A stretch of 30,170 bases of DNA from a virus (lineage: Duplodnaviria; Heunggongvirae; Uroviricota; Caudoviricetes), in the IMG/VR virus record IMGVR_UViG_2541047794_000005, positions 1 through 30,170 of that record. One strand, given 5' to 3'. The notes beneath the pieces were generated by a model. It was not told the origin of the DNA, did no database searches, and saw only the letters and a program-made list of their open reading frames with translations. Shown one piece after another: positions 1-30,170 of this stretch. The stretch's first letter is position 1. Each line of letters starts with the position of its first letter. The translations under genes and the position numbers were made by a program.

Positions 1-439
<439 letters not shown>

Positions 440-447
<8 letters not shown>

Positions 448-876
448 CGTTGGCCCCGCTTCTCTGAATCGCTTTATACCGCCATTCCAGCACTTCGGTC
501 AGCGGCATAACGTCAGTAACGGATGGCGGCCAGTGAAAAATGGTGGCGATATCTGCCACCAGATCGTCAACCGTCAGGCTGTCGGTAAACCGGCAAGCAC
601 CGACTTCCTCAACAAAAAAGTGACAACCTCAACCGACATGGCAGTGAGATCTGCCGGGTCCATCTCTGCAATTTCCTGTGCAGTCAGTGCCGGACTGGAG
701 ATGCGGGGGATCACGGTCATCATCGCGTTTACATCCATATCCATAATGGCCTGCAGGCGTGTACCGCGCAGCGCACCGGACTGCGGTTTACGCAGCACAA
801 TTTCGGTGATTTCTGTTTTACCGCGCTTGATGGGGGTATCCAGTTGAATGGTCTTTTCAGTCTGCTTATCGCTCAT
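440..876 (-). CDS. gpE+E' fusion made by -1 programmed frameshift (about 145 aa)
   Basis: My hand translation of the -1 frame after the T TTT TTG site stays open for about 58 codons and ends at TGA 442-440, overlapping the T start. This matches the P2 E/E+E' arrangement (analogous to lambda G/GT). Confidence 0.6.
574..876 (-). CDS. E: Tail assembly chaperone gpE (100 aa)
   Basis: ATG at 876, TGA at 576-574. Sits between FII and T as in P2 and contains the slippery heptamer near its 3' end. Confidence 0.85.
   Translation of the reverse strand: MSDKQTEKTIQLDTPIKRGKTEITEIVLRKPQSGALRGTRLQAIMDMDVNAMMTVIPRISSPALTAQEIAEMDPADLTAMSVEVVTFLLRKSVLAGLPTA
613..619 (-). other. -1 ribosomal frameshift slippery heptamer T TTT TTG
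   Basis: Minus-strand sequence ACT TTT TTG (codons T-F-L of E) lies about 13 codons before the E stop. This is the classic X XXY YYZ slippery pattern. Confidence 0.6.
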
Positions 877-930
877 TTTGTTGTCCTGTAAATTGGGTTC
901 TGGCGCGGAATCCCGCGCCGTTCAGATACA

Positions 931-1446
931 TCAGAGGCCGAGGGCGTTGCGGTGCGCTTCCATCAGGTCCACACCGTTCACAATTTCCACCATGTTGATA
1001 AGGTCCACTTCATAGAGCACCTCACCATTGATGGTCAGCTTCGCGTAGCTGTTGGTACTGGTCACTTTGGTGGTGTTGCTTTCGCCCGTCTTCCACTCGC
1101 CGGAATCCACTTCTTTGTGACGTCCACGCACCACAAGCTCCACGGCCTGCACTTCCCCGGTATCATCACGCTGGATAGAGCCGGTAAAGCGCAACTGGAT
1201 GCCATCCACCGTGGCTTTGCCCATCTGTTTAAACAGCAGCAGTTCAGTACCACCAATGGAAAATTCTGTGTCCAGAGCACTGTCATCAAGCCCCAGATCC
1301 ACATCCACTGCACCCGGCATTCCGCCGCCGCGATACTTCTCATATTTGCGGGTGAATTTCGGCAGCGTCAGCGACTCAACGCTCCCCTGCCAGTTGTTCC
1401 CGTCGTTAAACAGGTTCAGGTGTTTTAATTTGCGTGGTAAAGCCAT
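931..1446 (-). CDS. FII: Tail tube protein (171 aa)
   Basis: Size and position match P2 FII (172 aa), directly downstream of the sheath gene. Confidence 0.9.
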   Translation of the reverse strand: MALPRKLKHLNLFNDGNNWQGSVESLTLPKFTRKYEKYRGGGMPGAVDVDLGLDDSALDTEFSIGGTELLLFKQMGKATVDGIQLRFTGSIQRDDTGEVQAVELVVRGRHKEVDSGEWKTGESNTTKVTSTNSYAKLTINGEVLYEVDLINMVEIVNGVDLMEAHRNALGL

Positions 1447-1455
1447 GTTGTCCCC

Positions 1456-2628
1456 TTACGCGCTGACCTGGCTGGCGAAATTCACCAGGTACTGATCGGT
1501 GATGCGCTGACGCAACATCAGATTTTCAAGTGGCGGCACTGGCGTGTAGTCGTAGTCGATGGTGAGTTTTCCGGCTTTCAGAGTGTCTTTGTCGTTCACC
1601 GACTCGTCCAGCCAGCAATCACCACCAATGAGATACCCCTGACTGACCAGGCTGCGCATTTTGGCGCGGATGCCCTCGATAATGTCGCGCGCCAGCGACG
1701 GGTTCAGCGGTTTGTCCACTGCCCACATGTGCGCTTCTGCCATTGTGTCCGTCAGCACCTGCGCCGTGCGGGTGTAGTTTTCGAAAGCAAAGAGCGGGTC
1801 ATCACTCAGGCAGCGGGAACCCCAAAAGCGTAAACCGTCTTTACGCACAAGCGTGGTGACGTCGTTCTGGTTCAGCAGACCTGCATCGGTTGCCGGGTCC
1901 TGCAGATCCCAGAACACATCTGCAGAAATTCCGGTGACACCGTTCACGCCCACGTTGGACAGGCTTTTGTGCCACCCAGTCTGCTCATCAATTTTGGCAC
2001 GCAGACCAAGCGCACGGGCGGTGGCATATGCCGTTGCTTCGGCATTCAGCACCGTGTCCCAGCCAGTAAAGTCGGGCCAGATCAGCATTCCTTCGCGCTG
2101 GCTGAAGTTTTCACGGTAAGTGATCGCCTCCTGTACCGTCTTGCAGCCATACGCTGACAGGTAGGCAAACCCACGCAGGCTTTGCGCCACACTCAGCAAC
2201 TCAGTCGCAACGGCTTTGTTATCGTGACCTGGCACGCCGAGAATGCGCGGTTTAACGCCGAGCTGTGTCTGGGCAGATAACAGGGCTTTCATGCCTGTTT
2301 TTTTACCTTCAGCAGTCACTGCGCCGATGATATTGGTCGTGGTTTCTTCTTCCGTTTCACCCTGCGGCACACGCACAACAACGGTCACGGGTTTTGCCTG
2401 GTCAGCGATGGCATCCAGCGAACGGGCCAGCGTGCCGGACTCACCCGCTTTACCGCTGGCAGTCAGCACATCAGTGATCAGCACGGGTTTATTAAGAGGA
2501 AACATTTTTGCATCGGCATCATCGCCCGTGCAGACCATGCCCACGATGGCGGTGCTCACCGTGGTAATGGATCGGGTACCTTCGTTGACTTCAACAACGC
2601 GCACCCCGTGGTGGTAATCCTGAGCCAT
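1456..2628 (-). CDS. FI: Contractile tail sheath protein (390 aa)
   Basis: Sequence and size match P2 FI. First gene of the FI-FII-E-T late operon. Confidence 0.9.
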
Positions 2629-2704
2629 AGTGGCGAACCTCCTGATTGGATTAGGCTTCGCCCTATGTTGAAGTGATTGTGCCTGACAAACAGCTAAGCG
2701 CAGT

Positions 2705-2722
2705 TGTACCGTTATTCACACA
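2705..2722. promoter_or_regulatory. Candidate late-promoter activator site (TGT-N12-ACA, Ogr/Delta type) upstream of FI
   Basis: TTGTACCGTTATTCACACAAA, centred about 85 bp upstream of the FI ATG. It is 16/21 identical to the site between O and P at 14727-14744. P2-family late promoters carry a TGT-N12-ACA dyad near -55. Confidence 0.45.
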
Positions 2723-2770
2723 AAATGACGGTATTTGTCTGCTTGCAGGGATAATCAAAATAATGCTGAT

Positions 2771-3343
2771 TCAGGGGGATTCATTACTCTTATTTGCCGG
2801 AAATTTTCTATAAATTGTGGAAACACCCACATCAAAAATCAGTGCAATACGCTGTCTTGATTCTCCGGCCTCGAGTAAGCGTCCAATCTGTGCCCACTGT
2901 TCGGTGGTCAACTTAGGACGGCGTCCACCTACTCTGCCTTTATCACGAGCTGCAGCCAGCCCCGCCCTGGTACGTTCAACTATCAGTTCGCGTTCCATTT
3001 CAGCCAGGGCCCCCATGACATGAAAAAAGAAACGGCCCATTGGGGTGCTGGTATCAATACTGTCAGTCAGGCTTCGGAAATTCACGCCACGCTGACGCAA
3101 CTCTTCTATCAGCGTAACAAGATGCCGCATACTGCGCCCCAACCTGTCCAGCTTCCAGACAACCAGAGTGTCTCCAACCGATAGTGTCCTGAGCAGTTTT
3201 TTAAGCCCCGGTCTGTCGGGCTTAGTGCCACTGATTTTGTCCTCAAAAATCCGCTCACATCCCGCGCAGTTCAGTGCATTACGTTGCAAATCTGTGTTCT
3301 GGTCATTTGTTGACACGCGTACATAGCCAATAAGCATGATCAA
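2771..3343 (-). CDS. Serine recombinase, Hin/Gin/Cin/Pin-family DNA invertase (190 aa)
   Basis: N-terminal IGYVRVSTNDQ catalytic-serine motif, C-terminal HTH, and typical invertase size. Lies 50 bp from the left crossover site. Confidence 0.9.
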   Translation of the reverse strand: MIMLIGYVRVSTNDQNTDLQRNALNCAGCERIFEDKISGTKPDRPGLKKLLRTLSVGDTLVVWKLDRLGRSMRHLVTLIEELRQRGVNFRSLTDSIDTSTPMGRFFFHVMGALAEMERELIVERTRAGLAAARDKGRVGGRRPKLTTEQWAQIGRLLEAGESRQRIALIFDVGVSTIYRKFPANKSNESP

Positions 3344-3392
3344 TCCCCTGAATAAAAACCGGGGATGATGCCAGTTAGTCGTAATCGCTGCA

Positions 3393-3418
3393 TTTTCTTA
3401 AACGTTGGTTTGGGAGAA
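3393..3418. repeat. 26-bp invertase crossover site, left (hix/gix/cix-like)
   Basis: Minus-strand read TTCTCCCAAACCAACGTTTAAGAAAA has imperfect dyad symmetry around a central AA. Its core TTGGTTTGGGAGAAGG (3405-3420) is in inverted orientation to 5288-5303. Confidence 0.75.
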
Positions 3419-5289
3419 GGGGCTCCAGCTAATGGCGGCACGTGCGATAGGCCGACAGCTGCTATGCCAGCATCCGTTATCGGTTCCTGATCGTTCATGG
3501 TACTAGGGGAGTTTATTGGCCCGATATTCACTGTTACAGGTAACACGGTCCGCTCTATCGGTGGACAGGTCCCTGTACTATTCGACGAACACCGTAAGGT
3601 CATAGTTATTTGTGATTCCGAGGGCGGTAAGGCAGTCGCGTGTAACCCTCTCACGGGGGATTTGCACGCAATTTTTGATCATGCACGCAATTCAGCGTTG
3701 CGTATGGCGAACGGTCTTACCGCACAACATTCCCGATACGGTTAAAATTCGGTAAGACGGTATACATGTGGAAACGTGGGTACAGTTACAATAAAAGAGC
3801 GCGGTCCTAAGGTGAGCTCAACATCGCTAATCCTTAGTCCTCCTAGTGTTCCACGGATTGGAGAGAATTTGGCAAATGTATTGACACAAACCCTTTCAAG
3901 GAAGCTTGCGTATGAAATTCCAGAGGGGGCTTAGTAGGGAAGCCTGCATGTATTGAAATTGCGCCGGCTACTGTTGAGGACGATATTGGCTGTTCCTATC
4001 TGGAAGCGGTGCCATTGATTAATCAGGGCAAGTCAGACATATACATTAAGACATGGCCAAGTAAGCCCGCGATTGCTAGCGTGATTGACGCGGGAGAAGC
4101 GATTCATAGTTAATGGGTAGTATATATGGACACGCTATGGCTGCTTGATGCAGACGGTCCCCCTGATACCGAATACCCAACTGCAACGGGCGCAGCTGCC
4201 ACATGGCATCCTGCGGTGTGCTTCAAACAGTTTTAGTCAACGCGTTAACAGATTACGGCATACCGTTAATGGGGGTGTGATCAGTGGGCGTCAGCTACCG
4301 AGCCGCATCTTATTTCCGTTGTATCAGCCGCAGAAGAGCGGCGCCAGTAGCAGATTGATGCTGGCGTGGCGCCCATGACGCTTATACTACTGAGATTACC
4401 TGCCCCTCGGTAGCCGACACCCACTTCTAACCCTCCCATTAACCCTATGCTGGTTTATATTGACGCGGGGCAGGACCGTGATAGATGGCAACGGCCTGAT
4501 CCACTGTGACATGAACTGCCTTTGGAGTTGACTAATCGGTCTCTGGGCCACCGGCTGTATCAAGGAGCCACACCTCGCCCGGATAATCCGCCCATTAACC
4601 CGATTGCTCCTCGTCCTGATCATTAACACTACCACACGCGGGCATACTAACCCCATGCTTAATGTTTTCATCATCGCAGACGGGATTTATAAATTGCTCT
4701 GCTTTAAAATCGGCAGCAGGCATTTCTCCCTGCTGTGTTGGCAGCCGATTTTCAACACATACAGGTTTCCTTACGTAGACCCCTCTAGAATGTTATACTG
4801 GATATTCCTTGGTAAGTTCGCCGGCACTACTTTTCCCCTTATCGCACCAATACCCTTGACATTAGGAGAGTTCATGGTAAGTAATTTTGAGCTCCCCATG
4901 GGAAAGCGTTTGTCCATCTGCACTATAACCCCGTCACCACATGTAGACCGTATTCTCGAGTTAAATCTGTATCTTGATTTCTCTGCGATAACACCGGTCC
5001 CCGCCCACCATTCTAAATTGCGGATATGATCAAAAATTGTGTATGAATCCTCTGTGACAAGATTCGATCCGACTTCAATCACGCCATCGGACTTACAAAT
5101 ACCAATGAAATTCGCCCGTGCAGCGGATGATGTCGGCACCGGTCAACTGTTAAACAGCGCCGGGTTTCCTGAAACAGAGCATTACGGGCCAATATACTTA
5201 CAAGACAGCCTGAACGATCCCCAATCAAAAACGAATTCTGGCATATCAGGTATCTGCCAGTCTCATGGGACGACATCACCTTGCGCTCC
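3419..5289. other. Invertible DNA segment (about 1.9 kb) bounded by inverted crossover sites; no intact ORF in any frame
   Basis: Bounded by inverted 26-bp sites with an adjacent invertase gene. The ORF track shows only short overlapping ORFs (122 aa or less) with no protein-like content. Confidence 0.6.
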
Positions 5290-6351
5290 TTCTCCCAAAC
5301 CAAGGTATGTGAGAAGACCAGCGACATCCTTTCCACTCAAATTAGTCAGCGTATTGTCCAGCGGTTGTTTACCTGCCAGCGCATTAAGCATTGTCGTGGC
5401 AAAGTTCGGGTCATTCCCCAGCGCCGCCGCCAGTTCGTTCAGTGTATCCAGTGCCGCAGGTGCAGAACCCACCATTGCCGCAATCGCCGATTTCACAAAA
5501 GCCGTGGTGGCAATCTGTGTATTGTTAACCGACTGTGCGGCAGTGGGGGCTGTTGGCGTTCCGGTGAGTTCCGGACTTGACAGCGGCGCTTTCAGTGCCA
5601 GCGCATTGTTAATGGTGGTACTGAATTTCGGATCATTGTTAATGGCTGCGGCTAATTCTTTCAGCGTGTCCAGCGTGGCTGGCGCACCATTAATCAGGGC
5701 CGTCAGTGCCGCCTGAACAAACGCGGTGGTCGCAACCTGCGTGGTGTTATTCCCTGCCGCTGGCGTTGGCGCTTTTGGTGTCCCGGTAAACGTCGGACTT
5801 TCTTTGGGTGCATACTGTGAATGCGGGTCCGGTGCGGCAAGATGTTTTGCCATCTGATCATCCACGTACACCTTCAGCTCCAGTACCTTGTCATCCACAT
5901 ACTTGCGGGTTGCCAGCACTACGGCAGGGTCGATTTTCAGGGTGATATTGTCCGTGCTGCTGGTAATCAGCACCATGCGCACGGTCTGGGTACGCCCGCT
6001 GCCTTCAGCCAGTTGCGGTTTATAGCTTTCCGGGCAGTTCCCCACGGCAATCAATGCCCCTGACTCATCAAACAGGCCCACTTCACGTATCCACCAACCG
6101 CCCTCGTTTTCAGGGATCACCTGTTCAGCAATAATCTGGCTGCTGTTCTGCGGGTCGATATAGAGCATATTCAGCGCAGCCCGGCGTTTCTCATTTACCA
6201 GTGCCGTCTGCTTTGCGTCCGGCGTCGGCAATGCTCCGCCGCCATCGCCCACCGCCATATGGGTAATTTTTAGCGGCACACCGAGCGCGGCGGCGCTGGC
6301 AAGTTTCGCCTCGCCAATATCCGTCAGCAGGGTATAAAATTTTGTGCTCAT
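5263..6351 (-). CDS. H: Tail fibre protein, constant N-terminal part only (362 aa); frame stops 8 codons after the crossover site
   Basis: N-terminus MSTKFYTLLTDIGEAKLA..., the central Ala/Thr-rich repeats and ...NELAAALGNDPNFATTMLNALAGKQP match P2 H. P2 H is much longer, so the receptor-binding C-terminal domain is absent in this orientation. Confidence 0.8.
   Translation of the reverse strand: MSTKFYTLLTDIGEAKLASAAALGVPLKITHMAVGDGGGALPTPDAKQTALVNEKRRAALNMLYIDPQNSSQIIAEQVIPENEGGWWIREVGLFDESGALIAVGNCPESYKPQLAEGSGRTQTVRMVLITSSTDNITLKIDPAVVLATRKYVDDKVLELKVYVDDQMAKHLAAPDPHSQYAPKESPTFTGTPKAPTPAAGNNTTQVATTAFVQAALTALINGAPATLDTLKELAAAINNDPKFSTTINNALALKAPLSSPELTGTPTAPTAAQSVNNTQIATTAFVKSAIAAMVGSAPAALDTLNELAAALGNDPNFATTMLNALAGKQPLDNTLTNLSGKDVAGLLTYLGLGEGAQGDVVP
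5290..5315. repeat. 26-bp invertase crossover site, right, inside the 3' end of H
   Basis: TTCTCCCAAACCAAGGTATGTGAGAA shares the left half-site exactly with 3393-3418 (inverted) and the central AA. It encodes the YLGLGEG junction of the tail fibre. Confidence 0.75.
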
Positions 6352-6953
6352 GGATTCACTCTCATTGTGTCAATAACATGGACCGCCCCGCCTTCATGCG
6401 CGGTGCCACCGGAAATAATCGTTTCGTTGATATACGGATAGATCGTGATTTCTTCGCCAAGATAGCTGGCGGCTCCCACCCAATGCGGGCCGCTGGTCTG
6501 CAGATTGATGGACATGCCGATCATGTGGCGGCTACATGGTTTGGCATCGCTTATCAGTCGCTCAAGTTCCAGATAGGTATCTTCAGTGATGCCCTGGTCC
6601 TGCACGCCGATATCCAGGCGAAACATGCCCGGTGCCTCTCCGGTTTGCCACCACTCAATAATGCGGATCAGAAAGCCGAACGGCTCCACCACCCGCCGCA
6701 CGGCACTGGTGGTCCCTTTATGCTGATGAATATAAAAAGCATCCTTCACCACCTGGCGCTTGACGCTTTCTGTCCAGCCCTCGTCCCAGCGATCCACAGA
6801 GAACGCCCAGGCGAGATAAGGCAGGAAACTGACCGGACAGGTTGCCGGATTCCACAAGTCACGAAGCGGCACCTGCAGATCAGAAATCCCGCTGCAGGTT
6901 TGCGCCAGTCGGCGCTCCAGTGGTGTTGAACCCGGTGGCAGCAGACTATTCAT
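6348..6953 (-). CDS. I: Baseplate protein gpI (201 aa)
   Basis: Synteny J-I-H, with stop/start overlap with H. Confidence 0.8.
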   Translation of the reverse strand: MNSLLPPGSTPLERRLAQTCSGISDLQVPLRDLWNPATCPVSFLPYLAWAFSVDRWDEGWTESVKRQVVKDAFYIHQHKGTTSAVRRVVEPFGFLIRIIEWWQTGEAPGMFRLDIGVQDQGITEDTYLELERLISDAKPCSRHMIGMSINLQTSGPHWVGAASYLGEEITIYPYINETIISGGTAHEGGAVHVIDTMRVNP

Positions 6954-7854
6954 CCGTTCCTCCGTTGGTTACGCTCCACTGCGTACATGATGCCGCCTGT
7001 GTTTTGTTCAGGACCACATCCGCCAGAGGAGAAGCCAGCTCCACACGCTGCACACCCTCAACATGCAGGGCGGCAAAGATGGCGCTACGGCGAATATCCC
7101 GACCAAGACGCGTCTGACTGGCGATGTACTTCTGCAGGCTGGCTTTTGCCGCTGCCATTACCGGCTCTGCTTCCGGTCCCGGATAGAGAAAAATGGTGGC
7201 TTCCACGCGATACGGGATGATTTCTGCGCTGCGAACCGTCAGACGGTCAGCCACCGGGCGGACGTTCTCACTGTTCAGAGCTTTTTCCACCACGTCCAGC
7301 AGGTCTTTTTCTGCAGTTCCATCGCCTTCGCGGCTAAGGACAGTCAGCACCACCTCTGCAGGCGCCGGGCTGGTTGCACTGGCATCCGCCACCCGACCGT
7401 CGGCGCTTCGGGCATGAAATTCATAAGCTGCAGTTGGCCCCGCAACAGAAAGCCCTTCAAAGGCTGCAGGCACACGCAGGCGTAACGCTTCATCGCTTTC
7501 CATCACAGCCGCAACGGGTGGCACAGCGTCATTATCAGCAGGCGTCACCGTCAGGCGTTTCACGTTGTAGTTGGCAGCGAGCTGGTCAAGATCGCCGCCC
7601 ATCGCGTAAGCCACCATCACAGCATGCGCGGCTTCGTTAATGCGCTGGCGCAGAAGCAACTCACGGTAAGCGTTCTCCTGAAGCAATTTGGTGACGGGTT
7701 CAGATTCCAGTTCCAGCGTGCGGATCACTGCTTCCTGCTCATCTTTCGGATGAAGCGCAACAAATTCGGCCTTGCGTTCGGCAATCAGCGTCTCAAAGTC
7801 CGGCACATCCACAATCTGCGGCGCAGGCAACTGCGAAAGGTCAATCACTGCCAT
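6946..7854 (-). CDS. J: Baseplate protein gpJ (302 aa from ATG 7854)
   Basis: Synteny. The internal ATG at 7854 gives 302 aa, overlapping the W stop. Confidence 0.85.
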   Translation of the reverse strand: MAVIDLSQLPAPQIVDVPDFETLIAERKAEFVALHPKDEQEAVIRTLELESEPVTKLLQENAYRELLLRQRINEAAHAVMVAYAMGGDLDQLAANYNVKRLTVTPADNDAVPPVAAVMESDEALRLRVPAAFEGLSVAGPTAAYEFHARSADGRVADASATSPAPAEVVLTVLSREGDGTAEKDLLDVVEKALNSENVRPVADRLTVRSAEIIPYRVEATIFLYPGPEAEPVMAAAKASLQKYIASQTRLGRDIRRSAIFAALHVEGVQRVELASPLADVVLNKTQAASCTQWSVTNGGTDE

Positions 7855-9290: not shown

Positions 9291-9735
9291 GTTTCACCGT
9301 CCACATTTCTTCAGGTTCATCAGGTTCCGCTATAGCTTCAACGCTCGACACACTGCCGTCAGTGCTGACCAGCACACGCTCCGTCAGTTGCAGGTTGAGG
9401 CTGATATCACAGACATCGTTGCGCAGAATATCCACCTCAAAGGTGAATAGCTTTTCCCGTAACGCCGGGTTATTGATGGCATCGGGCTGGTTATCACGCA
9501 GCCACAGCAAAACCGGGGCCATCAGCAGATTCTGGTCGCCGCTGAAATCCTCAATCACCACGTTCAGGGTGTAGCGGTACTCCCATGACATGGAGCTGGC
9601 CCCCGTGGCAACCAGCGAACCGTTATCCACAAACAGATGCAGTTTGTCCGGGTTATTTCGGACATAAGGCACCGCTTTATTGAGGGCGTAGCGCAGGGAT
9701 TGTGGTTTGTTCACTGTTTCGCTCCTGACACGCAA
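9283..9735 (-). CDS. R: Tail completion protein gpR (150 aa)
   Basis: Synteny and size. Confidence 0.85.
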   Translation of the reverse strand: MRVRSETVNKPQSLRYALNKAVPYVRNNPDKLHLFVDNGSLVATGASSMSWEYRYTLNVVIEDFSGDQNLLMAPVLLWLRDNQPDAINNPALREKLFTFEVDILRNDVCDISLNLQLTERVLVSTDGSVSSVEAIAEPDEPEEMWTVKRG

Positions 9736-9967: not shown

Positions 9968-10238
9968 GTTTCAGTTCCTCGATCCGGCGTTGTCGTTGTC
10001 TCAGCTGTGCGCTGGTCTGTTCTGCTTCGGCATAGAGCCGCGCCTGCTCCCGGTTATTGGTTTCATTCAGAATGGACAGGCTGATAAGCTGGCTGTTGCT
10101 CTTTGCCAGTGCCTGGCTTTTGCTCTGCAGCTCGTTTGCCTGCGTGCTGATGGTCTGGCTGGCATCAGCCAGCCGCCACGTCTGCCAGCCCAGCGCCGCC
10201 AGTAATAACGCCAGCACAACCAGCAGCAACCGGTTCAT
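9810..10238 (-). CDS. lysB: LysB, Rz-like inner-membrane spanin (142 aa)
   Basis: N-terminal transmembrane helix followed by a coiled-coil periplasmic domain. Position after lysA. Confidence 0.8.
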   Translation of the reverse strand: MNRLLLVVLALLLAALGWQTWRLADASQTISTQANELQSKSQALAKSNSQLISLSILNETNNREQARLYAEAEQTSAQLRQRQRRIEELKRENEDLRHWADTPLPADIIRLRERPVLTGGAAYRQWLSESDAVSAGAGSTAH

Positions 10239-10612
10239 GCTGCTACCTGTTGCGCCATCTGATTACGGGTGATCCAGAAGGCAATAACGGTCAGTAGATA
10301 AAAGACCAGGGTAATAGCCCACCCCGTCCATGCGAGACTTACAACAATCAGCAATCGCATCACCCAACTGATAAATACGTTTTCTTTTCGGGTAATTGTC
10401 TTCAGCAAAGATGCCCTTAACTCCTGCCAGAGCGGGCCATTCTGAATTAACGCAGCCAGTGCTACCGGAATTACCGCCCATGTCAGCAAACAGGCTACCC
10501 AAACGCCGGACGCTGCCAGTACCGGAAAGATCCCCTGCGGATACACCATTGCTGCGATTAACAGCGCCATCCATAACATCAGAAACAGTCCGCTGATTAA
10601 TTTCTTTTTCAT
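10235..10612 (-). CDS. lysA: LysA, lysis-timing membrane protein (125 aa from ATG 10612)
   Basis: Polytopic membrane protein. The internal ATG at 10612 abuts the K stop (10614-10616). Confidence 0.7.
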   Translation of the reverse strand: MKKKLISGLFLMLWMALLIAAMVYPQGIFPVLAASGVWVACLLTWAVIPVALAALIQNGPLWQELRASLLKTITRKENVFISWVMRLLIVVSLAWTGWAITLVFYLLTVIAFWITRNQMAQQVAA

Positions 10613-19131: not shown

Positions 19132-19836
19132 TCATCTAACAGATACTTTTGCATAAATCAAAGGCCTATCCGAAGAGCCATTTTTACGTACGACCACTCC
19201 ACTGATATCATGGTTTTTACTAAGATCTCGTAATGCGGCGCACAATGCCTTGTTGACATACCCTAGATGATTGTCGTTTTTCGTTACTAATATGGCCAGC
19301 GGATCAACAGTATTGGTATCTTCATTGCGCAATATGACTTCATCACCAATTGATATCTCGTCAAGAGCTAGACGCCCTTCCTTAATCATGTGTCTCGTTC
19401 CGGCGACCTCCATGACATAATCAAAAGGTGGCCGAATAGAAGACAAGTCTGGGACAAAATAAAAACCATCACTAGCCACTTTTCCGCCAGTACAAGCGAG
19501 CAAAACGAAGTCATTCTCTCTAAAATCAGCAGGAAGACGAAACGTCAGCAAGTAATCGGCAAAATCTTCTCTTTTCCTGGAGGGTAACCTTCTTGAAAAG
19601 GTTTGCATAACGTCTTTGCGATGAGTCGTAACTTTTATGTCAAAAGCAGGAAAACCGTGAAAGCCTTTATCCCCAGCTTTAGCAAAATCTTTGCTATCCG
19701 TAAGATAATTAAACTCGTAGCCTTCAGACTCATCTTGAAGAAGTTCACCAACGACATAGCGAGAGCCGCCGTCGGTCGGTTGCCATGTCAGTAAGAGCCT
19801 ACTTGGCATGGGAATTTTTTCTATTAAGATAGTCAT
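19132..19836 (-). CDS. HipA N-terminal-subdomain-like (HipS-like) protein with a C-terminal HIRAN-like domain (234 aa)
   Basis: The N-terminal ~150 aa (LLLTW...VGELL...YEFNY; DFVLLACTGGKVASDGFYFVP) resemble the N-subdomain of E. coli HipA as I recall it. The C-terminal ~85 aa has an HIRAN-like pattern. ATGA overlap with the kinase gene. Confidence 0.55.
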   Translation of the reverse strand: MTILIEKIPMPSRLLLTWQPTDGGSRYVVGELLQDESEGYEFNYLTDSKDFAKAGDKGFHGFPAFDIKVTTHRKDVMQTFSRRLPSRKREDFADYLLTFRLPADFRENDFVLLACTGGKVASDGFYFVPDLSSIRPPFDYVMEVAGTRHMIKEGRLALDEISIGDEVILRNEDTNTVDPLAILVTKNDNHLGYVNKALCAALRDLSKNHDISGVVVRKNGSSDRPLIYAKVSVR

Positions 19837-20744
19837 GAAGTAACACCTTTAATCAGTTCAATACGCATGTTTGTTACACGAACAATCCATGCAGCACGTT
19901 CTCTAGTCAGCGGAACAGGGCAGTTTATTTCCGTCAACTCCGCAAAAGTTGAGTCCCAAAAGTCATGGTTCAAACGAGCCAGTCTTTCAGCTACCCGCTG
20001 TTTTAATTCTTCTTTTTTATCACAAAGTTCTTTGATTAACTCTAAATGACCTAATCTCTGATACTCATCTTTGCCCAGAGTTTTACGCAAATGATGCTTT
20101 CCCCGGCTAACATGCTCCCTGAGTCTATGATCGGTCCAATCAGCAACATGTTCCGGAAAGCGTTCGTAGCATAAGCTCGTACCATTATCGAAAAATGGTG
20201 CAAGCTGACACTCGCTGGTTAAAGGGGAGAAGATAAACCCCCAGTTTTCTTGATGTCTATCTGTATTACCTATTACTGCGTCAAAGAGAGCCATATTCTC
20301 CAACCACTCAACATAGTCAACTTTAAGAGCTTTCGCGATAATCCTCAGCCCTTCAATGGAATGCTTAGCTCCTTTCTCACGATCAAAATTTGGATCTCTT
20401 CGAACAAAGTAATCACCAGCGGGAGCAAATTTCTCATAATCTTTATGATGAAACCACTCAATGAGGGCCCCGCAAAACGTATGCCCCAAATCATTAGTCT
20501 TTAACGAAGGAACTGCTTTGGGGACATTAAAACCAAGCTGCAATCCAATCCTGTAGGCAACGATCTCACACCAAAATTGATCTGGGTATTTTTTAATACT
20601 TCTCTTAAAAAGATACGGCCACGATGCTTTGATACCATGGGGGGCAACATCAGGGGAAATAACCAATGCCTTAGAGCGAGCACCAACAGGATACTGTGCG
20701 AAAACATCTAGCTCAGTCCAATAGGTTACATCTAAGCAATCCAT
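19833..20744 (-). CDS. HipA-like Ser/Thr kinase, core domain only (303 aa, HipT-like)
   Basis: Motif VIGNTDRHQENWGF and a downstream FFDNG correspond to the HipA catalytic loop (GxTDxHxxN) and Mg-binding Asp. It lacks the ~150-aa HipA N-subdomain. RBS AGGA upstream. Confidence 0.8.
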   Translation of the reverse strand: MDCLDVTYWTELDVFAQYPVGARSKALVISPDVAPHGIKASWPYLFKRSIKKYPDQFWCEIVAYRIGLQLGFNVPKAVPSLKTNDLGHTFCGALIEWFHHKDYEKFAPAGDYFVRRDPNFDREKGAKHSIEGLRIIAKALKVDYVEWLENMALFDAVIGNTDRHQENWGFIFSPLTSECQLAPFFDNGTSLCYERFPEHVADWTDHRLREHVSRGKHHLRKTLGKDEYQRLGHLELIKELCDKKEELKQRVAERLARLNHDFWDSTFAELTEINCPVPLTRERAAWIVRVTNMRIELIKGVTS

Positions 20745-20759
20745 AGCTAAGTCCTATAT

Positions 20760-21305
20760 TTATTTTTTATTTAAATTCATATAGATGTGAGAAACCTGTG
20801 CGATCTGAAATAAAACATCATCGAATGCTGTGTGCCTAATGCCAGTGAAATTTTTATCAGCATGAGAAAAAATTCCTTTGCTTTCACCAAGTGCTAAGAT
20901 GGTTCTAACGTCAAGAGTATCTCTGAATGACCATGGGCAATCCAGACCCGCCTGTAACAGGGCATGATGCATGATCGTGCAGTCAAACTCTTTCCCGTTT
21001 CCCCACACTTTTACTCGGCCAGTACGATTATGAAGAATAAATGCCACAAATTCATTCAGAACCTCTAAAAGGTCCTTAGTGCCATCAAAATTTTCGTTTT
21101 TAGCTTCAGTACTTTGATTCATCCACCACTTTACAGTAGAGGGGGCAATGGTTCTGCCTGCTTGTTCATGATCAAGCGAAATAACTTGATAGAAACCCGG
21201 ACCAATCTCGCCAGTCTCCGGCACGAAAAAAGCCGCACCAACTGAAAGGATATAAGCTGTTTTTTCAACATCCAATGTTTCTATATCTAACATTACATGA
21301 TTCAT
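20760..21305 (-). CDS. DEDDh-family 3'-5' exonuclease (DnaQ/RNase T-like), about 181 aa from ATG 21305
   Basis: Exo I motif MLDIETLD near the N-terminus and Exo III motif HTAFDDV near the C-terminus. First gene of the three-gene operon. Confidence 0.75.
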   Translation of the reverse strand: MNHVMLDIETLDVEKTAYILSVGAAFFVPETGEIGPGFYQVISLDHEQAGRTIAPSTVKWWMNQSTEAKNENFDGTKDLLEVLNEFVAFILHNRTGRVKVWGNGKEFDCTIMHHALLQAGLDCPWSFRDTLDVRTILALGESKGIFSHADKNFTGIRHTAFDDVLFQIAQVSHIYMNLNKK

Positions 21306-21801
21306 AAGAAGCAATTGAAACCATTTAGTAAAAATTGAAAGCTATCACCACATTAATGCATGGCATGTACATTTGTGGACGAAAACAAGTATTCTGATTA
21401 TAACCCAAGTGAAAAGCTCAAGTGTCGTAACTTTCACTCGGTTGTTTTCAGTTTCGAAAAACTACTGGGAAGATCCATCTAGTGGTTGTATTCATGAGCG
21501 CGAATTCTCGCCATCAGCTCATCAGTCAACTCAGAAACCCACTGCAGAGCCAGCCCCTTCTCTTCATCACTACACTCACTAGCCGCTACAAGCTTAAGAA
21601 AAAAATCAATGCGCTGGAGCTTCAAAGACTCCAAAAAATAGTCCTGCATCTTTCCTCCTATGACACCACAAGCAATACTGTATGCACAACCACTGTTTAT
21701 ATTTACAGTATATAATAATCTTACTGATGTAAAACGTTTTTTACGTTCATCAGCCTGATATGCCTGGTATTATTAAGAGCACGAATTGTTAACCCACGTG
21801 A

Positions 21802-22158
21802 TTAATACAGGTTCCGCCACTTATCATCTTCCTGCAAACGCTGGTTCCGATAGAAGATACGCAGGCCTGCTCCTGACGGAATACTGCCACCGCGAAGGAG
21901 TAAATCGACCTCTTTCTCGCTGCCATCAAATCCTCTTGACTTCAGTTCATAGACGAGCTGCTGACGCTGATACTCTGTAATTCGCTGTTTGTAGTCTTTA
22001 CGCCGTTTCGGTTTCACCAGGCGTAATCTTGCTGCCAGTTCCTGGCGCTCTTTTTTGCTCATACTATGCAGGTAATCGTGCAACTCCTTGTCATCCATAC
22101 AGGTAATGTCAGTTCTGGTATCCCCATCTGTTGATTTATCTTTCTCCTGTTGGTTCAA
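21802..22158 (-). CDS. Hypothetical basic protein (118 aa), or a displaced C-terminal part of A
   Basis: ORF begins at a TTG overlapping the A stop, and no Shine-Dalgarno precedes any candidate start. Its frame is the one A would occupy if one 26-bp repeat copy were removed. Confidence 0.4.
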
Positions 22159-24242
22159 ATTTTCAGCAAGGGGACAGTTATTGCCACGAGTCCAAGGGGA
22201 CAGTTATTGCCACGAGTCCAAGGGGCGCAAGCGCCCTGGTCGGCTGCCGCCTCCTGAACGTCAACGGCCTTACGAACCATTTTCCACTTCACTGCATGAG
22301 TACAAATCTTGCCCTCTGCAATGGGTGACCAGATGCCATAAATACGAATACCGTGATCGCCATAGGCGGTCGGCTCTTCGTTAATTTCATAAGCTGTTCT
22401 GATAAGGTGATATTTGCGGGGAACCAGTACGCCGCCCTGCTTCATAATGTAGGTGGCAAAACAACCAGCATCAGCAGCAGCCAGGATTGCATCAAGGCGC
22501 GGGTTATCCAGTACCGGCGCACCTGCTTTTTTGTCCCCCTGTTGCCTTGCCGCCTGACCAGCCAGCAATCGCAGTTCACGGTAAGCCTGACGCCCCGGAA
22601 TGCCAAAGAAGCGGAATTGCTGAACACGATGCAGAGACGCCCAAGCATTAACGTATTCAGCATTATCACGCAGGGATTTCCCCGTTTCCTTGCTGATCTC
22701 GCCAGCCAGACCACGCCCGTCCATGTTCTTACTGATGTATTTCGCGATGTAGCTTGTTGGCGTACCTTTGCGCGGGTTAATCAACTCAGACTTAAAGCGC
22801 GGCCCAGTGTTATTGCCCAGCTCCTCGCGGTCTTCACGGATGGCAAACTTACGCAGTAATGCAGTGATGGCGCGGCGGTCTTTTTTGCGCATAAAACACA
22901 ACAGGTGCCAGTGAACTGTACCGTCATGATGCGGCTCAGCCACCCGCACGCCATACCAGCGCAATCCGGCTTTGTGCATCGCCTTACGAAATGCAGCAAA
23001 CATGCCGACCAGATAATCACTACTTTGTCTTACCGTCGCATTTGTCCAGGTTGGGTTGGGCCTGCCGTTATTTAGCGTGGAATGGAAACGTGACGGACAG
23101 GTGATGGTGTAGAAAACGGCGCAGTCACCGCGCATTTCCGCGATAAGCTCCAGGCCTTTAACACAGGCCATCATCTCATTGCGGCGATGCGCAGGGTTGC
23201 TGCTGCTGGCGTTTACCACATCCTCCATGTCCAGCGTGTCGCCGTCTTCGTTCACCAGTTCATGAGAACGAAAAAACTCCAGCGACTTACGGCGCTGCTC
23301 ACGTTTATGCATCACGGCTTCATAGCTGACATAGGGAGATGCTTTTTTGCTGACCAGGCAAACAGCACGCAACTGCTCTTCCCGCCATTCGCAACGCATC
23401 TTCCATAATTTCCGGTACCACCAGTCGGCGCACAACATACGCGCCAGCGAACCCGGAATGAGTTCATAGGGCACGGGTTTACGGCGGTTTCTTTTCCGGC
23501 GGAGTTGATCAAACGCAGGCGGGATGACATCCAGACGCAGGGTTTCCGCTGCCACCTTTTCCCATGTCTTGCGGATTTCTTCTGGCTTAACGTCATCGGT
23601 GACATACAAATCGCCACAAGCTGCATCAAGGCACATGCTCATATGCGCAGCGACAAGGGTAGACAAGCGTTTCACCTGATCCTGACTCATTTCAGGCAGG
23701 ATCAGCAGGCCGTCCAGCCCTTCATGGCTTGCCATAAAGCGAAAAGAAGTGGATAGCTGACTGTCGCGTACATGCTCCAGTCGTTCCAGACATGGCTTAA
23801 TCGTCTCACGCAAATAGCGGGAATAAGCCTTTGGCCTGCCTAGGCTGCTGAAGTATTCAATACGTTGCAACAGCGGCTTGCTGATATGGGAAGGCTGGGC
23901 ATTGACGTCCGCCAGAATGACCATATCTGGATTAAAACGCTGCTGCTCATGCGCCAGCTTTGCCCGGCTAATGAGCTTATCCTGCTCCATTTCGCGTTGG
24001 ACAGGATCACGGGATTCATTAAAGAAATAACGCTCCCAGACCTGATCACTCAGTGCCTCGCGGCGCAGTTGTTCCTGCTCGTTATCGGCAGCGTACAGAG
24101 TGATCAGGTTTGAAAGCGCAGAAACCGGCGCAACTTCCGCCGGGTCCAGATAAGGGTTAATAGCCTTTTTCGGGCTGTTCCATGAGAATGCTGCGGCGGC
24201 CTCGTTAAAGCCGCTGCAGTTGTTCATATCAGCATGGCTCAT
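22155..24242 (-). CDS. A: Replication initiation protein A (rolling-circle nickase, 695 aa)
   Basis: Motifs [25 protein letters not shown] and QFRFFGIPG...AYRELRLLA match the P2-family A protein. Confidence 0.85.
22170..22221. repeat. Perfect tandem direct repeat, 2 x 26 bp (GGGGACAGTTATTGCCACGAGTCCAA), within the last 20 codons of A
   Basis: Read directly from the sequence: 22170-22195 equals 22196-22221. Confidence 0.9.
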
Positions 24243-25095
24243 GCACGCACTCCGTACACGGCAGAACTATCCACGCCACGCGAAGGCTCAAATCCCACCC
24301 AGCAGCGCGCCCAGAAACAGCGATGATTTCTGTTGCAGATTTACTCTCACCAGCTGCTACGCCGATGCTGCGTTTTGCCTTGATGTAGTGGTGAGTAAAA
24401 TTGCGATACAGCGAACGGATCAGGGATGTGTCACTGTTAGAAACAATGACCGGATGTCCTTCTGATGACCGATGTTCAAGAACGGATGCCAGGTGATACT
24501 GGTCATCTTCAGTGAAGCCGTCAGTGTGATAACCGGAAAACGTGCCGTCATACGGCGGATCGCAATACACCACATCCCCCGCCTTCAACATCGCCAGCGT
24601 TTCATCAAAGCTGGCGCAGATAAACGTTGCCCGCTGGGCTTTTTCTGCAAATGCGCGAATTTCTTTTTCTGGGAAATACGGATTTTTATAATTACCGTAG
24701 GGAATGTTGAAATGCCCGCTCTTGTTATAGCGACATAAACCACGGTAACCGTGACGATTGAGATACAGGAAATATACCGCTTTCATGAAATCAGTAATTT
24801 CATTTGAGTAATTAAACTCCTGCCTTATGTTGTAATAAGCCACCTCCCTGTTTGCTTCCTTAAATAAAACTCTGGCGCGAGATATAAACGATTCACAATC
24901 AGCGGCAACCTTTTTATAGAGGTTGATTAAATCAGGATTAATATCCGCAACCAGATAGCTTGGATAATCCGTCTCCATCATCACAGCACAGGAACCCGCG
25001 AAAGGTTCAACCAGTCGCGGGCCAGCAGGAAGGTGTTTTTTCAGTTCGGACATAATTGCGGTTTTATTTCCCGCCCATTTCAGGATGGTGCTCAT
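24229..25095 (-). CDS. Dam-like DNA adenine (N6) methyltransferase (288 aa from ATG 25095)
   Basis: N-terminal LKWAGNK...LVEPFAGS (AdoMet motif I) and DPPY catalytic motif. Strong RBS AGGAGGTG. ATGA overlap with the upstream gene. Confidence 0.85.
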
Positions 25096-25394
25096 ACAGC
25101 ACCTCCTGCAATAACATATCCTAAAGCTTCTAATGGGGTTAATGAGCGAATTGATAGCATCACCCATTGTTCTGAAACTGCCATGACGTCATTAACCGGA
25201 AGCACATGAGAGATAACCGCGGCCCATTCCCTACCCGTAAATACGCCATGCTTCCATTCGCAAAGAGAAAGAACATCACCAACTTTATAGCCACGATCGT
25301 CTTTACGAAGTTCAGCCGTCTTTTGACCTGCAACCACAGCGTTGAAATACTTAGGTGCAATTTTTAATTGATGGATACGCACAGCCCCTGTCAT
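25092..25394 (-). CDS. ASCH/DUF3850-like small protein (100 aa from ATG 25394)
   Basis: [35 protein letters not shown] matches the pattern of ASCH-like proteins commonly paired with phage methyltransferases. RBS GGAGGTG. Confidence 0.6.
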
Positions 25395-26681: not shown

Positions 26682-27209
26682 TCACAGCAAACCGAATGAA
26701 GCACCGAGGCCAGTCACGGTATCAACTGCACTCGCCATCGCAGGATTAGCCTGTAAACGGGCCTGCAATGAAACAGCCGCCAGCGCCATCAGTCGTGTTA
26801 CAGAATTAATGCTGCTGATGGCATCACGACGACCGGCACTGGTTTTTACATCGCCAGATACCGCACCTGCAGCAACACGCCCGATCTCTGCGGTTGCACT
26901 CATGACGTAATGTGGCAGTTTCTCTTTTGCCACCTCATTAATCGGTACACATGGCAGACAATGAATCTGTGCCAGAAAACCATCTACCAGCGTTGAATCT
27001 TCAGTCAGATCGGTAAGCAGCCAGATTTCTGGTGCGGTTAATAAATGAGGTTGAGCTGGGTTCAGCTTGTTCCGCAGAATCTGCACATTCATGCCAGCAC
27101 GTTCTGCCAGTTGCACCAGGTTGTGGCGCAATGCGAATGCACGACAGGCTTCATCAAAATGTGGATGTTTGGAAACTTGGTAATCAAACATATTCGACAT
27201 CTCTGACAT
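26682..27209 (-). CDS. 186 CII-like regulatory protein (CP76 family), in the position of P2 B (175 aa)
   Basis: N-terminal [20 protein letters not shown] resembles phage 186 CII-family proteins as I recall them. Second gene of the early (lytic) operon. Confidence 0.55.
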
Positions 27210-28464: not shown

Positions 28465-29493
28465 ATGGATTTTATAAAAAAACTCGAATTTGGAAATTAT
28501 ACTCTCCGTTTTGGTGATGATGTTTTGCTAGACTATTATGATGAAATTGTTTTCCCCTCTTTTTTGGAGATGGCAAACATCCGCAGAATATCTGACAAAT
28601 CAGAGTTCTTTTTCATTGATACTGAATGCGTCATACTTGACGAAGAAGCAACACCCCCAGTACTCGGAATTAAAGGTCGGATTATTAAGAATACATTATT
28701 AACCAGAGAACAAGTATTTGATGGTGCTGATTTGGTTGAAGATCATCAAGAGCTTGAAACAGCCCCGAGCTCTTTCTTTCTTCTAATATTAAACACTCAC
28801 AGATTAATTCTTTGCAAGGAAGTTAGTGGTGCTCCCACAATTCAAAACTTTCAGTCAACAAGTCAGTGTTTCTTAAACATAGAATATGAAAAATACATAT
28901 CTCATTTATACGAAACCGCACAAGAAGAACGCAAAGAAAACCCTGACTTACCTCGAGTCACTAAAAAAAGCTTACGGAACGAAATCAAACGCCCGAAGCT
29001 AAGAATAACGCCGTTAACTGACAAACAAAGCCTAGAGCAATTTATTGATAATTTTAATAAAATCCAAAATGTCTCAGTAAAACTTCTCCCTACAAATCAA
29101 GAAGAAATTGATAACGACGAATTTTGGGAGTCACTTGAAAGTGCCGGAGACGAAATGGGAAGTATTTCTACATCTATTCGCTTTTCAAACACCGATTCAG
29201 GCTTGAATCATGGTGCTGTTTTAGAACAACTCACATCAGCAACCAGATTGGCTAATTCAGGAATAAATATTAAAGGATATGATGACAATGGTGATATAAT
29301 CAAAGGTAGCAATGATGACTTTGTTTTGTTAAGTGAGATGAATGAATTATCAAAGGATACGGTAGTAGCTGCAAATGAAAGTTATGAGCGGTATGAAAAT
29401 CTTGTAGAAGAAGGTAAGATATCTCTACCCCGTTCTCTTTCACAAAAGACGATTAGAATTATTAGCAATATATATGAAAGGTTTGGTCGATGA
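28465..29493 (+). CDS. Hypothetical soluble protein (342 aa), AT-rich, immediately downstream of the repressor
   Basis: RBS GAGG 8 nt upstream of ATG 28465, which is 15 bp after the repressor stop. No family recognised. Confidence 0.7.
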   Translation: MDFIKKLEFGNYTLRFGDDVLLDYYDEIVFPSFLEMANIRRISDKSEFFFIDTECVILDEEATPPVLGIKGRIIKNTLLTREQVFDGADLVEDHQELETAPSSFFLLILNTHRLILCKEVSGAPTIQNFQSTSQCFLNIEYEKYISHLYETAQEERKENPDLPRVTKKSLRNEIKRPKLRITPLTDKQSLEQFIDNFNKIQNVSVKLLPTNQEEIDNDEFWESLESAGDEMGSISTSIRFSNTDSGLNHGAVLEQLTSATRLANSGINIKGYDDNGDIIKGSNDDFVLLSEMNELSKDTVVAANESYERYENLVEEGKISLPRSLSQKTIRIISNIYERFGR

Positions 29494-30170
29494 TAAATAA
29501 AATAGATGCTAAAGAAATAACCAAAGAGAAAAACCTTTGGGATGTTTACTTGCTCTGCAAACGGATTACTATTAGTACATTCCATATTTGCATTTTGCTC
29601 ACAGCATCTATTTTTTTATTAACAAACTCTTTTTTTATTGAGAAGGATATGTCTCATTTAGTATCTGACATTAGAAACTGGGCTTTGATTGGTTTTAACT
29701 TTGCAGTGACAACCTTAGGTTTTCTCATTGCTGGTTTCACAATATTTGCAACACTATCCAAACCCGAGATGTTTCTTCAGATGATGTCAATACAACATAA
29801 AAAAACACAGATGCCCACGTTAAAATATAACTTTATGGCATTTATGAAAGTTTTCATCTCATTTATTACGTTTACTTTCATTTATCTAATAATAATTCTC
29901 TTTTGTCAAAAAGATGGAATAATTGGCAATATAATTGATTTATTTCCATATTCAAAATCGATAAAAGAATTAATTATTAAATTTGGATACTGTGTTATAG
30001 GGACTAGCCTTATTTACTTAGTGTTAGTAGTAAAGACATTTATTTTTAATATCTACGCTATCATAATGAATAATATTCGTTGGGAGTTATACATTAAAAG
30101 AAAAGAACAAAGACTTTCCAGTAACAAAGAGACAATCAATAAAAACATAGATGTAACTAAAATGCATTAA
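29490..30170 (+). CDS. Hypothetical polytopic membrane protein (226 aa, about 4 transmembrane helices), AT-rich
   Basis: ATGA overlap with the upstream gene. Four long hydrophobic segments. Stop TAA is the last codon of the window. Confidence 0.7.
   Translation: MINKIDAKEITKEKNLWDVYLLCKRITISTFHICILLTASIFLLTNSFFIEKDMSHLVSDIRNWALIGFNFAVTTLGFLIAGFTIFATLSKPEMFLQMMSIQHKKTQMPTLKYNFMAFMKVFISFITFTFIYLIIILFCQKDGIIGNIIDLFPYSKSIKELIIKFGYCVIGTSLIYLVLVVKTFIFNIYAIIMNNIRWELYIKRKEQRLSSNKETINKNIDVTKMH

Follow-up and report, generated by a model that had tools for sequence, protein, structure and literature searches.

Bacteriophages P2 and 186 encode rolling-circle initiators of the Phage_GPA family (the A protein, GpA) whose nick site lies inside their own coding sequence. 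The P2 record annotates a 'nick site at ori' at position 29892 inside gene A, with GCGCCTCG/GAGTCCTGTCAATAACTGT on either side of the nick, and the 186 record places its rep_origin at 28576, one base away within that GG, flanked by GCGCCCTCTCG/GAGTTCTGTCAATAACTGT. The nick-site sequence is conserved among the Peduovirinae and 29,892 is given as the experimentally determined P2 origin (PMC8537503). We analyzed the equivalent locus in a DNA window of 30,170 nt (the whole stretch of DNA studied here), which carries a Fels-2/Elveevirus-like P2-family prophage of Escherichia coli with gene A on the (-) strand. The window has in the same codons the core common to P2 and 186, GCGCC..YTYG/GA....AATAACTGT, but unlike in P2 and 186 the 26 nt 3' of the predicted nick are duplicated and the gene is frameshifted.

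The original prediction, that A carries a perfect 26-bp tandem duplication near its 3' end, was confirmed both by reading the sequence and with Tandem Repeats Finder (TRF). The 26-mers at 22170-22195 and 22196-22221 are identical, both reading ggggacagttattgccacgagtccaa, and TRF reported one array at 22167-22225 (period 26, 2.3 copies, 100% matches, score 118), made up of two full copies and flanking CCCCTTG on the (-) strand. Perfect 26-nt tandem pairs have a chance expectation of about 1e-11 in 30 kb of random sequence. The fractional 0.3 copy is the 7-mer CCCCTTG, which on the (-) strand occurs three times, at 22219-22225, 22193-22199 and 22167-22173. Set in the phase of the predicted nick by alignment with one-copy relatives, the duplicated unit reads GACTCGTGGCAATAACTGTCCCCTTG, with its first base at the nick and its end at the second CCCCTTG; copy 1 occupies 22193-22218 and the identical copy 2 occupies 22167-22192 (both (-)). 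TRF also listed four further very short imperfect tandem repeats with scores of 31-42, located at 9307-9327, 10211-10231 and 27049-27110.

The nick was placed by homology. In the codons that hold the annotated P2 and 186 sites the window reads GCGCCCCTTG/GACTCGTGGCAATAACTGT, and at the protein level P2 APRSPVNNC stands opposite APWTRGNNC of the window. Given the P2 and 186 annotation and this codon alignment, GCGCCCCTTG/GACTCGTGGCAATAACTGT would therefore be the homologous origin core, with the predicted GpA nick CCCCTTG/GACTCG between 22219 and 22218 on the (-) strand. The phiX174 origin, CAACTTG/ATATTAATAAC (nick at the slash), has the same CTTG and AATAAC elements. As judged from this alignment, the duplicated 26-mer starts at the position homologous to the annotated nick sites of P2 and 186 (G/G), and the predicted rolling-circle origin lies, as in those phages, inside gene A, in the linker before the C-terminal domain of the protein. 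Both copies being identical, the prophage now bears two tandem predicted nick sites, the second at 22192-22193 (-). A further CCCCTTG/CTGAAA at 22166-22167 (-), either a nick-like site or 7 bp of microhomology, lies 26 nt 3' of the true nick in one-copy sequences; it was thus already present in the one-copy ancestor and forms the right-hand endpoint of the duplication.

Comparison with relatives demonstrated that one copy is the ancestral state. Megablast against phage records returned Fels-2-like P2-family phages of Klebsiella, Salmonella and Escherichia, with matches 25-26 bp shorter than the query. The GpA genes of Fels-2, RE-2010 and Cartapus (Felsduovirus, Elveevirus) are 93-99% identical to the window at the nucleotide level and lie in the same order of dam, A, small ORF and cargo, with the same origin core but, unlike the window, with one copy and an intact 804-aa GpA. 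In Escherichia phage Cartapus and Salmonella phage RE-2010 a single 2415-bp (804-aa) gpA is annotated across the whole region, which contains exactly one 26-mer with CCCCTTG on either side, and the 804-aa GpA of the one-copy relatives corresponds to the window A plus the 118-aa open reading frame (ORF) behind it. The closest relative was a prophage of E. coli SF-173, which over 24.9 kb (window 5285-30170) was 99.88% identical to the window and differed only by 3 SNPs and the 26-bp gap. Removing one copy from the window restored an 804-aa protein with 0 differences from the intact SF-173 GpA and 17 from that of Cartapus. Because the one-copy relatives encode an intact 804-aa GpA and the single-copy window restores that of SF-173, the two-copy state is derived and not native. 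The prokaryotic genome annotation pipeline (PGAP) likewise labels the two-copy allele a 'frameshifted' replication endonuclease in E. coli S88 (ECS88_RS15620) and M8 (RG57_RS24150), RefSeq pseudogenes with the identical 26-bp duplication whose annotation is silent on the origin. The leading interpretation made at the outset, a recent frameshifting duplication that truncates A, agrees with both lines of evidence.

The competing possibility raised with it was that the repeat is a native, iteron-like two-copy origin, that a 695-aa A is normal and that the 118-aa ORF is a separate gene. This was half right: the repeat unit is origin sequence, namely the nick-site core, yet natively it is present only once. 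A length comparable to that of some P2-family A proteins had been taken as a hint that the window A is native; the likeness in length to the A of 186 (~694 aa) proved coincidental. The 33-nt origin core was present in 2,469 of 5,426 complete E. coli genomes and only 8 of the ~2,469 core-bearing genomes had the +26 allele. No intact phage with two copies was found among 72 phage records with this origin core (0/72), a sample too small to inform on the two-copy state. The one-copy majority, together with the read-through of the one-copy form into a single 804-aa protein under purifying selection, effectively refutes a native two-copy origin and leaves it with next to no probability.

The consequence for the protein is a shift of frame. 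Gene A spans 22155-24242 (-) and encodes 695 aa, with the 118-aa ORF in the frame that A would have with a single copy, as the ORF list and translations had indicated. With 26 additional nt the reading frame changes: GpA keeps native residues 1-683 (...NNCPL), adds 12 aberrant out-of-frame residues and stops, without the 121 native C-terminal residues; the 804-aa reading frame typical of functional members of this subgroup is not kept. When one copy was deleted in silico, three-frame translation fused the A frame and the 118-aa ORF frame without a stop. Residues 188-510 of the window A match the full Pfam Phage_GPA profile (PF05840, positions 1-321, E = 2.3e-127). Alignment with P2 A places the HUH-type metal-binding motif at residues 438-448 (22899-22931, (-)), with HHDGTVHWH opposite the P2 motif, and the active-site tyrosine pair motif YIAKYISK at residues 498-505 (22728-22751, (-)), the latter opposite P2 residues 450-457 with the paired tyrosines at P2 Tyr450 and Tyr454; both motifs are retained. 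P2 A acts in cis. By these motifs the catalytic core of the truncated GpA is intact, but a conserved C-terminal domain is absent. Given cis action and the loss of a C-terminal domain under selection, the prophage is therefore probably incapable of lytic replication, that is, most likely replication-defective. A role for the active-site tyrosines of P2 is attributed to Odegrip & Haggard-Ljungquist 2001 as cited in PMC3986222. We also considered programmed frameshifting as a way to rescue A, which would need a -1 shift within ~12 codons; no canonical slippery heptamer was seen in frame and the idea was rejected.

The lost end of A persists as an untranslated remnant, and the 118-aa ORF (21802-22158, (-)) is this remnant read from an in-frame TTG. 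The severed part of the gene, 121 codons plus the stop (AENLNQQ...WRNLY), extends over 21802-22167 (-) and has 0 differences from the SF-173 GpA. Over 23 lineages its dN/dS was 0.14 as compared to 0.02 for the preceding 300 codons. On reading the sequence we saw, in line with the earlier observation, nothing like a Shine-Dalgarno motif ahead of either the TTG or the internal ATG, and a TTG start without a ribosome-binding site speaks against a native separate gene. The database homologues listed for the ORF were short, many being 98-aa calls from an internal Met, and those with a source name were mostly called 'replication endonuclease, partial'. Each inspected homologue, including every apparently standalone one, lay directly behind an N-terminal GPA fragment, i.e. 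in a broken A gene, and the gene had been interrupted by this 26-bp duplication, by a nonsense SNP or by changes of +/-1 in a homopolymer; these contexts too argue against a native separate gene. The 121 codons and the tail of 186 A have in common a basic motif, S-x-x-E-R-x-E-L...R-L-R...K-P...R-R-K (hhalign probability 93%). Beyond the origin no similarity to the P2 domain was detected, a profile comparison with the C-terminus of P2 A giving no significant match, and the basic motif is all that the domain has in common with 186. No Pfam match was found for the ORF or the severed domain. An AlphaFold model of the domain was helical and only moderate (pLDDT 64, pTM 0.33), and a Foldseek search of the PDB with this model returned no hit with E below 4. 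Because of the dN/dS of 0.14, the contexts behind broken A genes and the motif common with the 186 A tail, the 118-aa ORF is a selected part of GpA and no separate gene. One of the genomes that encode the identical 695-aa truncated A (GCA_964047695.1) has an IS21-family element (IstA/IstB) inside the A remnant at 5089-7157, a sign that the broken gene has decayed further; an insertion here also counts against a native two-gene architecture.

A neighbor-joining tree was built from 1,320 bp of sequence flanking the origin. The +26 alleles were polyphyletic and scattered on the tree, with the +26 lineages at least 38 sites apart from each other. The window had 0 differences in the flanks from one-copy SF-173, a second +26 sequence (L022) had 0 differences from one with two GACTCG hexamers (L020), and a third (L019) had 7 differences from one-copy Cartapus. 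The events in S88 and M8 are taken as independent of that in the window because the prophage backgrounds are ~5% divergent (501 bp compared). By this reckoning +26 was acquired in at least 8 unrelated prophage backgrounds, plus one with three copies, and the GACTCG x2 allele is present in at least 5 backgrounds; the nick site is a recurrent insertion hotspot. The exact 695-aa product was found on at least 24 public contigs, some of them chromosome-sized, indicating that the allele is stably inherited in a clone. Judged by sequence the event is recent, but its allele is passed on clonally. One two-copy allele (L016, IMG/VR UViG_3300010260_000008, 2821-2899) carries a G-to-A change in its first copy (AACTATCC), so the duplication there is older and has persisted.

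Two further explanations were weighed. Short tandem repeats are occasionally mis-assembled, and an assembly or sequencing artefact in the window would give an apparent duplication; the identical allele is, however, present in independent assemblies, projects and technologies (S88, M8, six more complete genomes, and IMG/VR and metagenome contigs), and with the exact 695-aa product on the contigs counted above the chance of an artefact is negligible. The second is a reversible switch, in which the copy number of the 26-mer (1, 2 or 3) would toggle gene A by slippage or by initiation and termination at the nick copies, giving a heritable and revertible replication block. Copy numbers of 1, 2 and 3 do occur between lineages, the remnant ORF was intact in all two-copy lineages examined (10 of 10), and in plasmid and phage constructs tandem rolling-circle origins are known to collapse to a single copy. 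Yet only between-lineage copy numbers were seen, with within-population heterogeneity not in evidence, and the remnant is, at 363 bp, too short for its intactness to show selection. Stable inheritance of the allele, the SNP in one L016 copy and the IS element in one remnant also run counter to a switch, which would in addition require the truncated, cis-acting A to be active. We regard a switch as improbable.

To characterize the insertions at the nick, variants were collected by sequence inspection and by an unbiased scan. Inspection gave a series with GACTCG at 2, 3, 4 and 5 copies, +21 and +26. In the 5,426-genome set two or more GACTCG hexamers were found in 14 complete genomes and a +21-bp duplication in 1, the +21 unit being GACTCGTGGCAATAACTGTCC with no flanking microhomology. 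Three 26-mer copies (+52 bp, out of frame) were found in a ~14% divergent prophage (L025, IMG/VR UViG_3300029508_000048, 10150-10260). The unbiased gap-pattern scan accepted any insertion of 1-30 nt within 28 nt spanning the nick; it returned 8 IMG/VR and 4 metagenome contigs with an insertion, all +6 (GACTCG) or +26. Control scans over 40 nt upstream and 54 nt downstream (94 nt) returned 0 insertions; they did not lack power, since their anchors matched 110/120 (upstream) and 105/120 (downstream) wild-type contigs. Among whole-gene A matches sampled at even intervals from E. coli, 43 of 44 full-length genes were exactly 2415 bp and the exception had GACTCG x4 at the nick. Two scans of GTDB species-representative genomes found no duplicated allele.

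A start at the TTG/GAC nick fits every variant class (+6, +21, +26 and +52) and is the only one possible for +21. Only two CTYG motifs lie within 40 nt 3' of the nick, CTCG ending at +6 and CTTG at +26, and the two recurrent lengths end at exactly these motifs; +21 ends at GTCC, which is not nick-like. The CTYG endpoints match the true sites, which are CTTG/G in this phage group and CTCG/G in P2 and 186. A 7-bp direct repeat, CCCCTTG, flanks the 26-bp unit in 116/120 IMG/VR contigs. In a related lineage (Logan/NCBI contigs L028-L032) CCCCCTG replaces the second CCCCTTG, and the A genes there are interrupted where a run of C or G has changed by +/-1, possibly through sequencing errors. P2-type and 186-type origins in IMG/VR showed no insertion variants (denominators of at least 120) and have neither such repeats nor nearby CTYG motifs.

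We moderately favor a nick-anchored error of rolling-circle replication as the source of the duplication of the 26 nt 3' of the nick and of the truncation of GpA. Rolling-circle synthesis would run beyond the regenerated nick site, the strand would then be cut and joined, or its 3' end realigned, at the next nick-like CTYG (CTCG for +6, CCCCTTG for +26) instead of the true site, and a tandem duplication starting exactly at the nick would be written. The resulting genome could still be packaged but could only lysogenize, leaving an A-defective prophage. This model is preferred over slippage because all variant classes start at the nick, because de novo hexamer duplication recurs with only 1 bp of microhomology, because the +21 event occurred without microhomology and because +6 and +26, the lengths that recur, stop at the only two CTYG motifs in the first 40 nt. 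At termination of rolling-circle plasmids an overshoot of the nick by ~10 nt is credited to Khan 2005 in the quotation given in PMC5037232. The sequences themselves show the duplication, its derived state and recurrence, the truncation and the anchoring at the homologous nick position; a role for GpA in making the duplication is inferred. That GpA itself writes the duplications, with termination overshoot resolved at the next CTYG so that the first 6 or 26 nt of the origin are duplicated, is a live possibility that we place a little short of even. The same chemistry could in principle resolve the tandem nick sites back to one copy if the truncated protein is active.

The chief competitor is plain slipped-strand mispairing between the CCCCTTG 7-mers 26 bp apart, independent of GpA and occurring in host or phage replication, with the coincidence with the nick either incidental or a matter of linker tolerance. 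Slippage can by itself produce +26 and subsequent changes in copy number, and it gives the same frameshift and truncation of A. The perfect 7-bp direct repeat around the unit, present in all one-copy relatives at the frequency given above, and the 100% identity of the copies are what it predicts, as are the three-copy allele, the GACTCG ladder of 2-5 copies and the absence of variants at P2-type and 186-type origins, where such repeats are missing. It accounts poorly for de novo GACTCG duplication with 1 bp of microhomology in at least 5 unrelated backgrounds, for a +21 duplication that starts exactly at the nick without microhomology, for the 0 insertions across the 94 nt of flanking controls and for the ending of both recurrent lengths at nick-like CTYG motifs. 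We consider slippage as the whole explanation a serious possibility, though on balance a doubtful one.

Several observations weigh against the nick-anchored model. Ordinary replication slippage at the perfect 7-bp direct repeat would alone give the same product, and GACTCG at 2-5 copies and the 26-mer at 2-3 copies are typical slippage behavior. The +21 duplication, the only event without microhomology, comes from a single genome and has a right end (GTCC) that is not nick-like. Insertions are not general to GpA origins, since no P2-type or 186-type variants were found; this lack is predicted by both mechanisms alike. Linker tolerance may partly explain why in-frame insertions are visible, yet none were seen in the more variable downstream linker. 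The nick position, predicted from the P2 and 186 annotation, could be off by 1 nt. No significant hairpin was found at the origin: a single-stranded DNA hairpin as driver was rejected, as the one-copy, two-copy and P2 strands folded no better than shuffles (z = -0.4, -0.35 and +1.8, respectively). Finally, loss of function of the truncated GpA is only a probable outcome, as the protein keeps the whole Phage_GPA domain.

The nick-anchored model has precedents. Illegitimate recombination at the nick site of rolling-circle replicons is known from pC194, M13 and phiX174 termination at partial origins, where one endpoint lies exactly at the nick of the initiator, as here, and the other at a sequence resembling it, as here for +6 and +26 though not for +21. 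Those classical cases are deletions or cassette exchanges in single-stranded DNA plasmids and phages, whereas here short tandem duplications are found in natural prophages of a double-stranded DNA temperate phage. Slipped-strand duplications between short direct repeats resemble the insertions here in that a perfect tandem copy lies between direct repeats, in this case of 7 bp, and in that the copy number has gone on to change (three copies), but differ in that +6 and +21 arise at the same start without meaningful microhomology and in that the hotspot coincides with a protein-made nick. The findings are a variation on what is already known of slippage duplications and of illegitimate recombination at the nick sites of rolling-circle replicons. 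As a pseudogene the allele is unremarkable, and RefSeq already calls it in other strains; the nick-anchored hotspot is modestly new. In a literature search with incomplete coverage, no earlier description was found of the origin-nick link or of recurrent nick-anchored insertions in A genes.

The loci next to gene A were also inspected. Upstream, dam (DNA adenine methylase, roughly 24229-25100, (-)) has a 1-bp deletion ~60 nt before its normal end, at 24302-24321, where the window reads TTCTGGG-CGCGC and Cartapus TTCCGGGCCGTGC. The window dam has no stop at the ATGA overlap with A and reads 13 nt into A. The deletion is common to SF-173, where PGAP labels dam 'frameshifted'. In 186 the annotation makes translation of A depend on the upstream ORF being translated right through, and the dam frameshift may by analogy affect translational coupling to A. 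Downstream of A, 19132-21649 (-) encodes a 56-aa ORF, a 3'-5' exonuclease (Rv2179c-like), a HipA_C-domain protein and a HIRAN-domain protein. Relatives have a 62-aa ORF and a DinI-like gene at the equivalent position, and others have DarT/macro-domain, HEPN or TIGR02391 genes in the same place; this is a cargo set, possibly anti-phage, in a variable region beside A. At the left end, window 1-5284 diverges from the SF-173 prophage and only 1950-3583 aligns (96.7%), to SF-173 sequence that holds the end of a tail sheath gene, a recombinase family gene and the first part of a gp53-like gene, just left of the tail fiber genes; by alignment this end looks like a mosaic swap.

Together these data indicate that the window encodes a truncated replication initiator and that the 118-aa ORF does not merit annotation as a gene. 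Unrelated prophages have repeatedly gained the same short duplications at a single bond, and with its origin inside a gene a P2-like phage has in the nick site a weak point of its own making. If GpA causes the duplications, they would be a natural read-out of where the initiator cuts and rejoins (CTYG), and prophage collections would hold a record of the termination specificity of a double-stranded DNA phage HUH initiator. The +26 product would then destroy the initiator that made it, since the origin lies inside the cis-acting A, and such genomes would persist only as lysogens, which would be one route by which P2-like phages become dead-end lysogens.

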